This document shows positions 47,351-52,313 of a stretch of 64,000 nucleotides of DNA, piece by piece. The DNA is taken from assembly GCF_054482525.1 (NCBI RefSeq), contig NZ_CM137006.1; one strand, written 5' to 3'. The notes beneath the pieces were generated by a model that saw nothing but the letters and a program-made list of their open reading frames with translations, did no database searches and was not told the DNA's origin. Position numbers and translations under genes: made by a program. Within the stretch, counting starts at the first letter, position 1; each line of letters opens with the position of its first letter.

Positions 47351-48712
<1,362 letters not shown>

Positions 48713-48851
48713 AACGTGAGGAAATACCTGGATTTTTCCTGGTTATTTTGCCGCAGGTCAGCGTATCGTGAACATCTTTTCCAGTGTTCAGTATGGTGCC
48801 TTGCACGGTAATTATGTCACTGGTTATTAACCAATTTTTCCTGGGGGATAA

Positions 48852-49991
48852 ATGAGCGCGGGAAGCCCAAAATTCACCGTTCGCCGCATTGCGGCTTTGT
48901 CACTGGTTTCGCTATGGCTGGCAGGCTGTTCTGACACTTCAAATCCACCGGCACCGGTCAGCTCCGTTAATGGCAATGCGCCTGCAAATACCAATTCTGG
49001 TATGTTGATTACGCCGCCGCCGAAAATGGGGACGACGTCTACAGCGCAGCAACCGCAAATTCAGCCGGTACAGCAGCCACAAATTCAGGCTACTCAACAA
49101 CCGCAAATCCAGCCAGTACAGCCAGTAGCTCAGCAGCCGGTACAGATGGAAAACGGACGCATCGTCTACAACCGCCAGTATGGGAACATTCCGAAAGGCA
49201 GTTATAGCGGCAGTACCTATACCGTGAAAAAAGGCGACACACTTTTCTATATCGCCTGGATTACTGGCAACGATTTCCGTGACCTTGCTCAGCGCAACAA
49301 TATTCAGGCACCATACGCGCTGAACGTCGGTCAGACCTTACAGGTGGGTAATGCTTCCGGTACGCCAATCACTGGCGGAAATGCCATTACCCAGGCCGAT
49401 GCAGCAGAGCAAGGAGTTGTGATCAAGCCTGCACAAAATTCCACCGTTGCTGTTGCGTCGCAACCGACAATTACGTATTCTGAGTCTTCGGGTGAACAGA
49501 GTGCTAACAAAATGTTGCCGAACAACAAGCCAACTGCGACCACGGTCACAGCGCCTGTAACGGTACCAACAGCAAGCACAACCGAGCCGACTGTCAGCAG
49601 TACATCAACCAGTACGCCTATCTCCACCTGGCGCTGGCCGACTGAGGGCAAAGTGATCGAAACCTTTGGCGCTTCTGAGGGGGGCAACAAGGGGATTGAT
49701 ATCGCAGGCAGCAAAGGACAGGCAATTATCGCGACCGCAGATGGCCGCGTTGTTTATGCCGGTAACGCGCTGCGCGGCTACGGTAATCTGATTATCATCA
49801 AACATAATGATGATTACCTGAGTGCCTACGCCCATAACGACACAATGCTGGTCCGGGAACAACAAGAAGTGAAGGCGGGGCAAAAAATAGCAACCATGGG
49901 TAGCACCGGAACCAGTTCAACACGCTTGCATTTTGAAATTCGTTACAAGGGGAAATCCGTAAACCCGCTGCGTTATTTGCCGCAGCGATAA
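48852..49991 (+). CDS. nlpD: Lipoprotein NlpD (LysM plus M23 peptidase-like activator of amidase)
   Basis: 379-aa ORF with lipobox LAGC and a Q/P-rich tandem repeat ([25 protein letters not shown]). Confidence 0.93.
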
Positions 49992-50053
49992 ATCGGCGGA
50001 ACCAGGCTTTTGCTTGAATGTTCCGTCAAGGGATCACGGGTAGGAGCCACCTT

Positions 50054-51046
50054 ATGAGTCAGAATACGCTGAAAGTTCATGATTTAAATGAAGATGCGGA
50101 ATTTGATGAGAACGGAGTTGAGGTTTTTGACGAAAAGGCCTTAGTAGAAGAGGAACCCAGTGATAACGATTTGGCCGAAGAGGAACTGTTATCGCAGGGA
50201 GCCACACAGCGTGTGTTGGACGCGACTCAGCTTTACCTTGGTGAGATTGGTTATTCACCACTGTTAACGGCCGAAGAAGAAGTTTATTTTGCGCGTCGCG
50301 CACTGCGTGGAGATGTTGCCTCCCGCCGCCGGATGATCGAGAGTAACTTGCGTCTGGTGGTAAAAATTGCCCGCCGTTATGGCAATCGTGGTCTGGCGTT
50401 GCTGGACCTGATCGAAGAGGGCAACCTGGGGCTGATCCGCGCGGTAGAGAAGTTTGACCCGGAACGTGGTTTCCGCTTCTCAACATACGCAACCTGGTGG
50501 ATTCGCCAGACGATTGAACGGGCGATTATGAACCAAACCCGTACTATTCGTTTGCCTATTCACATCGTAAAGGAGCTGAACGTTTACCTGCGAACCGCAC
50601 GCGAGTTGTCCCATAAACTGGACCACGAACCAAGTGCGGAAGAGATCGCAGAGCAACTGGATAAGCCAGTTGATGACGTCAGCCGTATGCTTCGTCTTAA
50701 CGAGCGCATTACCTCGGTAGACACCCCGCTGGGTGGTGATTCCGAAAAAGCGTTGCTGGACATCCTGGCCGATGAAAAAGAGAACGGTCCGGAAGATACC
50801 ACGCAAGATGACGATATGAAGCAGAGCATCGTCAAATGGCTGTTCGAGCTGAACGCCAAACAGCGTGAAGTACTGGCACGTCGATTCGGTTTGCTGGGGT
50901 ACGAAGCGGCAACACTGGAAGATGTAGGTCGTGAAATTGGCCTCACCCGTGAACGTGTTCGCCAGATTCAGGTTGAAGGCCTGCGCCGTTTGCGCGAAAT
51001 CCTGCAAACGCAGGGGCTGAATATCGAAGCGCTGTTCCGCGAGTAA
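50054..51046 (+). CDS. rpoS: RNA polymerase sigma factor RpoS (sigma-38), full length
   Basis: ORF from [66 protein letters not shown]... (330 aa); no internal stop. Confidence 0.95.
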
Positions 51047-51165: not shown

Positions 51166-51573
51166 CTATGTGTTCATCATCTTGCGCACCAACTGCATAA
51201 ACAGCTCCTTCTCTTCTGCACTCAAACGCCCCAAAAATTCCTCATCCACACTGTCACCAATCGGTATCGCCGCAGCAAGTACCTTTTCTCCTTCGGCAGT
51301 CAGCCAGACAAAGCGACGCCGCTTGTCAGCGGTGTCATGTTCGCGTCTGACTAAGCCACGATTTTCCATTCTTGCCAACATTTCTGCCAGCGTTGCTTTG
51401 GTGCTGACGGCTGCTTCCATCAGTGCCACCTGTTCGATACCTGGTTTATCAGCAATGGCGCGCATCACCGCGTACTGTGGTTTGGTCAGGTCAGGTAACT
51501 CGTGCTGCCAGCGAGCCGTATGCTGCTGAAAAAGCTGTCGTAACTGATGGAACGCTTTATTTCGTAACGCCAT
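51166..51573 (-). CDS. MarR/SlyA-family transcriptional regulator, divergent from the decarboxylase operon
   Basis: 135-aa ORF MALRNKAFHQLRQLFQQHTARWQHELPDLTKPQYAVMRAIADKPGIEQVALMEAAVSTKATLAEMLARMENRGLVRREH... (winged-helix MarR signature). Confidence 0.8.
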   Translation of the reverse strand: MALRNKAFHQLRQLFQQHTARWQHELPDLTKPQYAVMRAIADKPGIEQVALMEAAVSTKATLAEMLARMENRGLVRREHDTADKRRRFVWLTAEGEKVLAAAIPIGDSVDEEFLGRLSAEEKELFMQLVRKMMNT

Positions 51574-51719: not shown

Positions 51720-52313
51720 ATGAAACTGATCGTCGGGATGACAGGGGCTACCGGTGCGCCTCTTGGTGTGGCATTACTGCAAGCGCTGCGGGAGATGCCG
51801 AATGTCGAGACTCATCTGGTGATGTCGAAGTGGGCGAAAACCACTATTGAACTGGAAACGCCTTACAGCGCTCGCGATGTTGCCGCCCTCGCAGACTTCA
51901 GCCATAACCCGGCGGATCAGGCGGCGACTATCTCTTCCGGCTCCTTTCGTACCGACGGCATGATCGTTATTCCATGCAGTATGAAAACGCTCGCCGGTAT
52001 CCGCGCTGGTTACGCCGATGGTCTCGTAGGGCGCGCGGCGGACGTCGTGCTCAAAGAAGGCCGCAAACTGGTGCTGGTGCCGCGTGAAATGCCGCTTAGC
52101 ACAATCCATCTCGAAAATATGCTCGCACTTTCGCGCATGGGCGTGGCGATGGTGCCGCCCATGCCTGCCTTTTATAACCATCCCGAAACGGTAGATGACA
52201 TTGTCCACCACGTGGTAGCCCGCGTGCTGGATCAATTTGGCCTCGAACATCCTCACGCCAGGCGCTGGCAAGGATTGCCGCAGGCCCGGAATTTTTCTCA
52301 GGAGAATGAATAA
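51720..52313 (+). CDS. UbiX/Pad1-family flavin prenyltransferase (B subunit of a non-oxidative hydroxyarylic acid decarboxylase; EcdB/BsdB-like)
   Basis: 197-aa ORF MKLIVGMTGATGAPLGVALLQAL... (UbiX N-terminal GMTGATG signature). Confidence 0.85.
   Translation: MKLIVGMTGATGAPLGVALLQALREMPNVETHLVMSKWAKTTIELETPYSARDVAALADFSHNPADQAATISSGSFRTDGMIVIPCSMKTLAGIRAGYADGLVGRAADVVLKEGRKLVLVPREMPLSTIHLENMLALSRMGVAMVPPMPAFYNHPETVDDIVHHVVARVLDQFGLEHPHARRWQGLPQARNFSQENE

Follow-up and report, generated by a model that had tools for sequence, protein, structure and literature searches.

The Escherichia coli gene nlpD encodes an outer-membrane lipoprotein whose N-terminal part carries a glutamine- and proline-rich repeat, and the DNA that encodes this repeat is itself arranged in tandem a short way upstream of rpoS. 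Such an arrangement raises the question of what the repeat does in NlpD, how often its copy number changes among strains, and whether such changes could reach beyond NlpD to the expression of the neighbouring sigma factor gene. These points were addressed for one copy of the gene lying in a window of 64,000 nucleotides (contig NZ_CM137006.1 of assembly GCF_054482525.1), a term that stands here for the whole stretch of DNA analysed and to which all positions refer unless another sequence is named. The features that bear on the argument are collected in Table 1.

Table 1. Features of nlpD, its tandem repeat and the adjoining rpoS gene, with their positions in the window.
Feature	Position	Strand	Basis or remark
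nlpD CDS, murein hydrolase (AmiC) activator lipoprotein, 379 aa + stop	48852..49991	+	ORF and NCBIfam
Lipoprotein signal peptide, lipobox L-A-G-C	48852..48929	+	Translation; Cys26 is the lipidated residue
N-terminal linker, residues 27-122, from lipid anchor to LysM	48930..49217	+	Limits from Pfam domains
Repeat unit 1, CAGCAACCGCAAATTCAGCCGGTA, QQPQIQPV, residues 66-73	49047..49070	+	Tandem Repeats Finder and codon register
Repeat unit 2, CAGCAGCCACAAATTCAGGCTACT, QQPQIQAT, residues 74-81	49071..49094	+	Tandem Repeats Finder and codon register
Repeat unit 3, CAACAACCGCAAATCCAGCCAGTA, QQPQIQPV, residues 82-89	49095..49118	+	Codon register
Perfect 2 x 9-nt tandem, CAGCCAGTA (QPV-QPV)	49110..49127	+	Tandem Repeats Finder, 100%; most frequent place of length change (1 or 3 copies)
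Degenerate tail, QPVAQQPVQ, residues 90-98	49119..49145	+	9-14/24 nt identical to units 1-3
LysM domain, residues 123-165, septal-localisation/peptidoglycan-binding module	49218..49346	+	Pfam PF01476, E 2.7e-12; function per Tsang 2017
Main intragenic rpoS promoter, TTGCGT, 17 nt, TATTCT, start ~49487	49453..49487	+	Published 567-nt leader and ATG 50054; outside the repeat
Peptidase_M23 (degenerate LytM), residues 279-372, amidase-activating module	49686..49967	+	Pfam PF01551, E 4.6e-33
rpoS CDS (context)	50054..51046	+	ORF starting MSQNTLKV; annotated rpoS at homologous loci

The encoded protein matches the NCBIfam equivalog NF008123 from residue 4 to residue 379 (679 bits; cut-off 311) and displays the succession of parts by which NlpD is recognised, namely a signal peptide with a lipobox cysteine, a LysM domain and a C-terminal M23/LytM domain. 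The residues G25 and C26 show no variation among 38 homologues, and the relatives of the M23 domain in the PDB are DipM and EnvC. In the protein, the degenerate LytM domain activates AmiC, and the LysM domain is responsible for localisation (Tsang 2017, PMC5533458). The open reading frames of the window follow the order surE-pcm-nlpD-rpoS, RefSeq loci are annotated likewise, and nlpD is annotated in 5,420 E. coli genomes.

Two details of the gene deserve mention apart from the repeat. The RefSeq/PGAP annotation starts nlpD at a TTG (48897) that lies 45 nt downstream of the ATG at 48852, giving a protein of 364 aa. From the upstream ATG, which has GGGGGA 4 nt ahead of it, the product is 379 aa long and its signal-peptide n-region is basic (K7, R11, R12); to judge from these signals, the ATG looks like the better start. 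Within the LysM-coding part, a hairpin that resembles a terminator, with a T-run behind it, is found on the minus strand at 49232-49257; it is probably due to chance, since two such sites were counted against a shuffle mean of 1.8.

Downstream of rpoS, an open reading frame assigned to the MarR family occupies 51166-51573 on the minus strand, the Pfam MarR match being at the homologous locus in GCA_026283405.1. A further open reading frame at 51720-52313 on the plus strand seems to resemble a UbiX-type flavin prenyltransferase, and this is presumably the variable mutS-rpoS region that is absent from K-12. Three database proteins (P0101, P0059 and P0106) reproduce the first 81-85% of NlpD at 100% identity and then run into another domain, which is either Sigma70_r4 (protein of 403 aa) or of the UbiD family (550-560 aa). 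They have the appearance of natural deletions by which nlpD became fused with rpoS or with genes further downstream, and may as such be rpoS-loss alleles.

A preliminary description of this locus had placed an in-frame Q/P-rich tandem repeat with the consensus QQPQIQ(P/A)(V/T) at 49050-49145. The open reading frame, the NlpD family match and the codon register bear out such a repeat within nlpD, and its consensus is exact; of the two coordinates the end stands, and the start had been set one codon late, as the array begins at 49047. The good QQPQIQxx units are three and not four, the fourth stretch being the degenerate tail. Tandem Repeats Finder reports one array at 49050-49114 (period 24, 2.7 copies, 70% matches, score 67) and a second at 49110-49127 (period 9, 2.0 copies, 100%), and both units, of 24 and 9 nt, are multiples of three and lie in the nlpD codon register. 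In pairwise comparison the three units are identical at 15-21 of 24 nt, and units 1 and 3 have identical peptides, their DNA differing at three synonymous sites. Residues 66-98, which comprise 16 Q, 7 P, 4 V and 3 I among 33, fall inside the linker 27-122, ahead of the LysM domain. At period 8, NlpD shows 16 of 24 self-matches, where 2000 shuffles averaged 6.8 and never exceeded 11, and the observed periodicity was reached neither by any of 2000 shuffles of the whole protein nor by any of 2000 shuffles of the Q/P-rich linker alone. Composition alone does not explain the periodicity.

The repeat as such is already known. Ichikawa, Li, Fu and Clarke are said to have described, in 1994 (J Bacteriol 176:1630), E. 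coli NlpD with its P/Q-rich amino-acid repeat, and in the same year Lange and Hengge-Aronis reportedly also dealt with the protein and its P/Q-rich repeat. The P/Q repeat of NlpD is likewise treated by Tidhar et al. 2009 (PMC2736372), and the earlier statement that it is a known feature of the protein agrees with both Ichikawa 1994 and Tidhar 2009. The published repeat and that of the window coincide in gene, protein length (379 aa) and position, and the window allele shows no difference from it. The present analysis adds a tally of length alleles and the signature of slippage.

For the census, a query of 301 nt centred on the repeat (window 48950-49250) was compared with 5,426 complete E. coli genomes. 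Matches were obtained in 5,420 of them, at 95% identity or more in 5,419 and at 84% in one outlier, and the band of 90-95% identity was empty among these matched genomes; six complete genomes gave no match at all to this part of nlpD. In a control with a synthetic 2-unit allele, megablast aligned the 24-nt gap in one piece, at about 92% identity. Since gaps of 24 nt are aligned whole and the 90-95% band is empty, the gain or loss of one unit (+24 or -24 nt) does not occur among the complete genomes matched. The synthetic 2-unit allele itself was matched by no complete genome, and the same search brought real alleles of -9 and +48 nt to light.

The -9 allele, in which a single copy of CAGCCAGTA is left (dQPV), is carried by exactly seven genomes from bovine and human strains, which were the sole full-length matches to the -9 query at 95% or more, all remaining full-length matches lying at 93% or below. 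The +9 allele, with three 9-mers (+QPV), is present in at least four genomes, and inspection of the sequences reveals two origins, as CAGCCAGTA is tripled in 13P460A and CAGCCAGTG occurs twice before CAGCCAGTA in Rb-50. A +48-nt allele with five units is found in PapRG-04-4 only, a strain from a baboon in the Gambia. Length variants therefore amount to at least 12 of 5,420 complete genomes (about 0.2%), 99.8% keeping the canonical length, in a census that is blind to indels of 3-6 nt, which identity bands do not separate from SNPs, and to alleles of +/-48 or 72 nt on divergent backgrounds. About 63 records aligned only in part to the +9 and -9 queries. A synthetic 1-unit query found nothing at 99% or more in the complete genomes, a search that is not exhaustive for divergent backgrounds, and a synthetic +72 query does not discriminate, since two overlapping parts of it are each matched at 100% by canonical alleles. 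Most of the variation thus detected concerns the 3'-terminal QPV sub-repeat of 9 nt, and the number of 24-nt units is three except in the one variant genome that the searches could detect.

The three most divergent same-length alleles returned by the 301-nt search, taken as a stand-in for the partially aligned records, each have three units and the canonical length, and in RM9387, the outlier at 84%, three units are accompanied by an extra Ile codon. In this strain, the whole surE-pcm-nlpD-rpoS stretch (NZ_CP009104.1, 1-3267, corresponding to about 47490-50750 of the window) shares no more than 89.8% identity with the window, and the N-terminus of its NlpD matches the E. fergusonii-type protein P0024, including the extra Ile before the repeat. 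Either the segment was introgressed or the lineage is mislabelled.

A wider range of lengths is found in a collection of 15 billion proteins, which was consulted by exact-sequence look-ups and in which the counts are of contigs. The canonical NlpD of 379 aa, present verbatim under the UniRef name NLPD_ECOLI, is encoded on at least 1000 contigs. The dQPV form (376 aa) follows with 633 contigs on a T228A background and 83 on the canonical background, and the +QPV form (382 aa) with 234. Changes in unit number are far scarcer, with six contigs for five units (395 aa), three for four units (387 aa) and a single one for two units (371 aa, Shigella flexneri). A homology search adds a 1-unit allele (P0022), an E. 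coli +72-nt allele of five units (P0017) and a 7-unit allele (P0018). The last of these (GCA_026283405.1, contig RDNP01000004.1, 1693-1860) arose from a 4-unit base by a perfect duplication of 72 nt, and the genome that carries it, being only about 91% identical to the window, belongs to another Escherichia species. All nine length alleles differ by 9, 24, 48 or 72 nt, stay in frame and encode full-length NlpD. Repeat copy number is thus not identical in all strains, and the length polymorphism for which the preliminary description had seen a potential is real, with alleles of -9, +9 and +48 nt in complete genomes and other unit numbers in the wider collections, but it is rare and consists mostly of 9-nt steps.

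The structure of these alleles offers hints about how they arise. The longest exact matches in register are of 9 nt at period 24 and of 11 nt, CAACCGCAAAT, at period 48, to which the perfect 9-nt doublet must be added. Allele frequency tracks this identity, the changes in the perfect doublet being the commonest and those of whole units very rare. In PapRG-04-4, one unit of the duplication is a hybrid that begins as unit 3 and ends as unit 1, the junction falling within the 11-nt identity CAACCGCAAAT, and such a hybrid is what a misalignment of unit 1 with unit 3 would be expected to produce. These junctions suggest that the length alleles were generated by slipped-strand mispairing or by unequal exchange. 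The process would start with replication slippage, or with exchange, between short identical stretches, either the 9-nt doublet or the 9-11-nt identities between units, and the surviving products, which are all multiples of 3 nt and all rare, would be close to neutral. In the B2 lineages ST131 and ST1193, the doublet is imperfect, CAGCCTGTG-CAGCCAGTA (positions 181-311 of the extracted loci), and in the window (49110-49127) it is perfect, so that the substrate for slippage depends on the allele and the proneness to slippage should differ between lineages.

The exact unit is present 0-1 times in 105 homologues that belong to other enterobacterial genera, where the region has the form of a degenerate Q/P/V stretch, yet the distance from the lipidated Cys to the LysM domain is nearly constant (79-102 aa, median 92, sd 2.7); the rest of NlpD is 78-90% identical outside Escherichia. 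The NlpD of Yersinia has no P/Q repeat and is nevertheless required for cell separation (Tidhar 2009, PMC2736372). Length changes in this part of the gene are also met outside Escherichia. In Salmonella Typhimurium UK-1 there is a 12-bp in-frame deletion in nlpD (PMC3391293), which can be read as encoding TPQQ and hence as lying within the homologous Q/P stretch, and Salmonella NlpD proteins of 377 and 373 aa are consistent with this placement. In addition, the proteins P0086-P0088, P0091 and P0093, of which P0086 and P0087 are named as NlpD of Kosakonia cowanii, contain runs of QPV/QSV/QPI triplets in varying number, giving linkers of 90 versus 96 aa; these differences indicate that the length of triplet runs varies in another genus too.

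Taken together, these data make it likely that the repeat is a low-complexity spacer, in which an approximate length and a Q/P-rich composition are under constraint and the exact sequence is not, that it plays no part in rpoS as DNA or RNA, and that it slips on rare occasions. The linker would tether the LysM and dLytM domains of the outer-membrane NlpD to the lipid anchor, and residues 66-98 would most likely act as a flexible or extended spacer only. The scarcity of the exact unit in other genera, together with the nearly constant linker length, points to a spacer, and a constraint at the level of the protein is indicated by the synonymous differences both between units 1 and 3 and among strains, which differ at third codon positions of the repeat and keep the peptide. 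Both linkers of NlpD are predicted to be disordered by DISOPRED (Tsang 2017, PMC5533458). An AlphaFold2 model from a 38-sequence alignment, with a mean pLDDT of 34.8 and a pTM of 0.23, is too poor throughout to inform on disorder, as residues 1-119 fall below 50 but the folded M23 domain does so too, and a search of the PDB found no chain that matches the N-terminal linker.

The spacer reading has to be weighed against the possibility, which seems unlikely, that the repeat is a specific interaction motif whose peptide sequence matters, binding peptidoglycan, a component of the divisome or of the Tol-Pal system, or LolA/LolCDE. The peptide QQPQIQ is present three times and has persisted through synonymous divergence in E. 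coli, in alleles of the E. fergusonii type and in a third lineage of Escherichia, a conservation that, as far as the alleles tell, would exceed what a pure spacer needs. A fusion with the N-terminal linker alone is weakly enriched at midcell (Tsang 2017, PMC5533458), which hints at some specific interaction. Moreover, when linker residues 29-64 are deleted, about 60% of NlpD stays in the inner membrane and complementation is impaired (El Rayes, bioRxiv 10.1101/2021.01.05.425367). This deletion ends one residue before the repeat and retains it intact, 60 linker residues being left, so that the parts of the linker would not be interchangeable, and the Q/P part may differ from a generic disordered linker, given how poorly the protein is sorted with those 60 residues left. 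However, the LysM domain alone suffices for localisation (PMC5533458), natural alleles range from one to seven units, and a motif on which binding depends would have to be reconciled with its absence in Yersinia and with its loss or reduction to a single copy in genera where the other parts of NlpD are still 78-90% identical.

A role for the number of copies, as opposed to the sequence, would make the repeat an adaptive tuning knob or molecular ruler for the reach of NlpD from the outer membrane to septal peptidoglycan, with lineages selecting particular lengths. Linker length has been shown to matter for Pal (PMC12826056) and, as cited there, for RcsF; the dQPV allele is fairly successful, given its 633 contigs on one background, and the +QPV allele arose at least twice. 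The allele spectrum renders such a ruler improbable, as the canonical length is retained by 99.8% of complete genomes, the common variants alter just 3 of 96 linker residues, and the larger changes are confined to 1-6 contigs each, which is what transient, neutral or slightly deleterious slippage products would give. A still more specific form of the idea, in which unit number would set the reach of NlpD or its hand-over to the Lol pathway, and the length alleles would be selected variants tuning the activation of septal amidases, is very improbable.

The remaining question is related to rpoS. The main intragenic start site of this gene has been placed 567 nt before its ATG, and promoters upstream of nlpD give rise to a bicistronic nlpD-rpoS transcript (PMC10948607). 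Applied to the window, the published leader puts the start at about 49487, and the hexamers TTGCGT (49453-58) and TATTCT (49476-81) can be read by eye ahead of it; the repeat, which ends at 49145, lies some 340 nt upstream, and its earlier placement ahead of the promoter region holds. When 48700-50100 was scanned for consensus promoters, no sigma-70-like site emerged and the documented rpoS promoter was missed too, and an Rfam scan of the repeat region on both strands returned no family. With this position, the repeat is part of the weak bicistronic transcript and is absent from the major rpoS mRNA, and a role in the rpoS leader was rejected because the repeat precedes the start site. That the repeat acts as nucleic acid, for instance as a structure or a binding site, on read-through transcription from nlpD into rpoS or on translation, is largely refuted already and hardly credible, since apart from its place within the bicistronic transcript everything points the other way: its distance from the main start, the scans of the region, and the predominance of synonymous differences among units and strains, which denotes a constraint on the protein.

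The window carries the canonical K-12-type allele of a locus whose polymorphism is real and of low frequency, with slippage concentrated in the 9-nt doublet. For annotation and typing, nlpD length variants at this site, with products of 361, 364, 367 or 380 aa (RefSeq numbering), ought not to be taken for errors or pseudogenes, and variants in repeat length should leave the rpoS promoter unaffected. The natural alleles of one to seven units could serve as ready reagents on whether linker length matters for NlpD.

Apart from the published NlpD repeat itself, known systems that come near are the disordered linkers of outer-membrane lipoproteins such as RcsF and Pal, which, as in NlpD, follow the lipidated Cys and the sorting residues, are of low complexity, are predicted to be disordered and are conserved in length. 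Most such linkers are not periodic, whereas the NlpD repeat is. At the level of DNA, the repeat behaves as one of the in-frame coding tandem repeats (VNTR- or minisatellite-like) of bacterial envelope proteins, with which it shares head-to-tail units, lengths in multiples of three, copy-number polymorphism and slippage-type junctions. However, the units of NlpD are diverged (15-21/24 nt), which accounts for a low rate of polymorphism (about 0.2% of genomes), and the nlpD repeat would be a poor typing marker. With phase-variable contingency loci, only the mechanism of slippage is held in common, as the 9- and 24-nt units of nlpD keep the frame; a contingency locus was considered and rejected, all alleles being in frame and incapable of on/off switching. 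A last comparison is offered by TonB, whose (Glu-Pro)n/(Lys-Pro)n region is a proline-rich spacer that spans the periplasm and is likewise periodic, proline-containing and non-globular, bridging a distance. Compared with that of TonB, the repeat of NlpD is uncharged and rich in Gln, and it is anchored to the outer rather than to the inner membrane.
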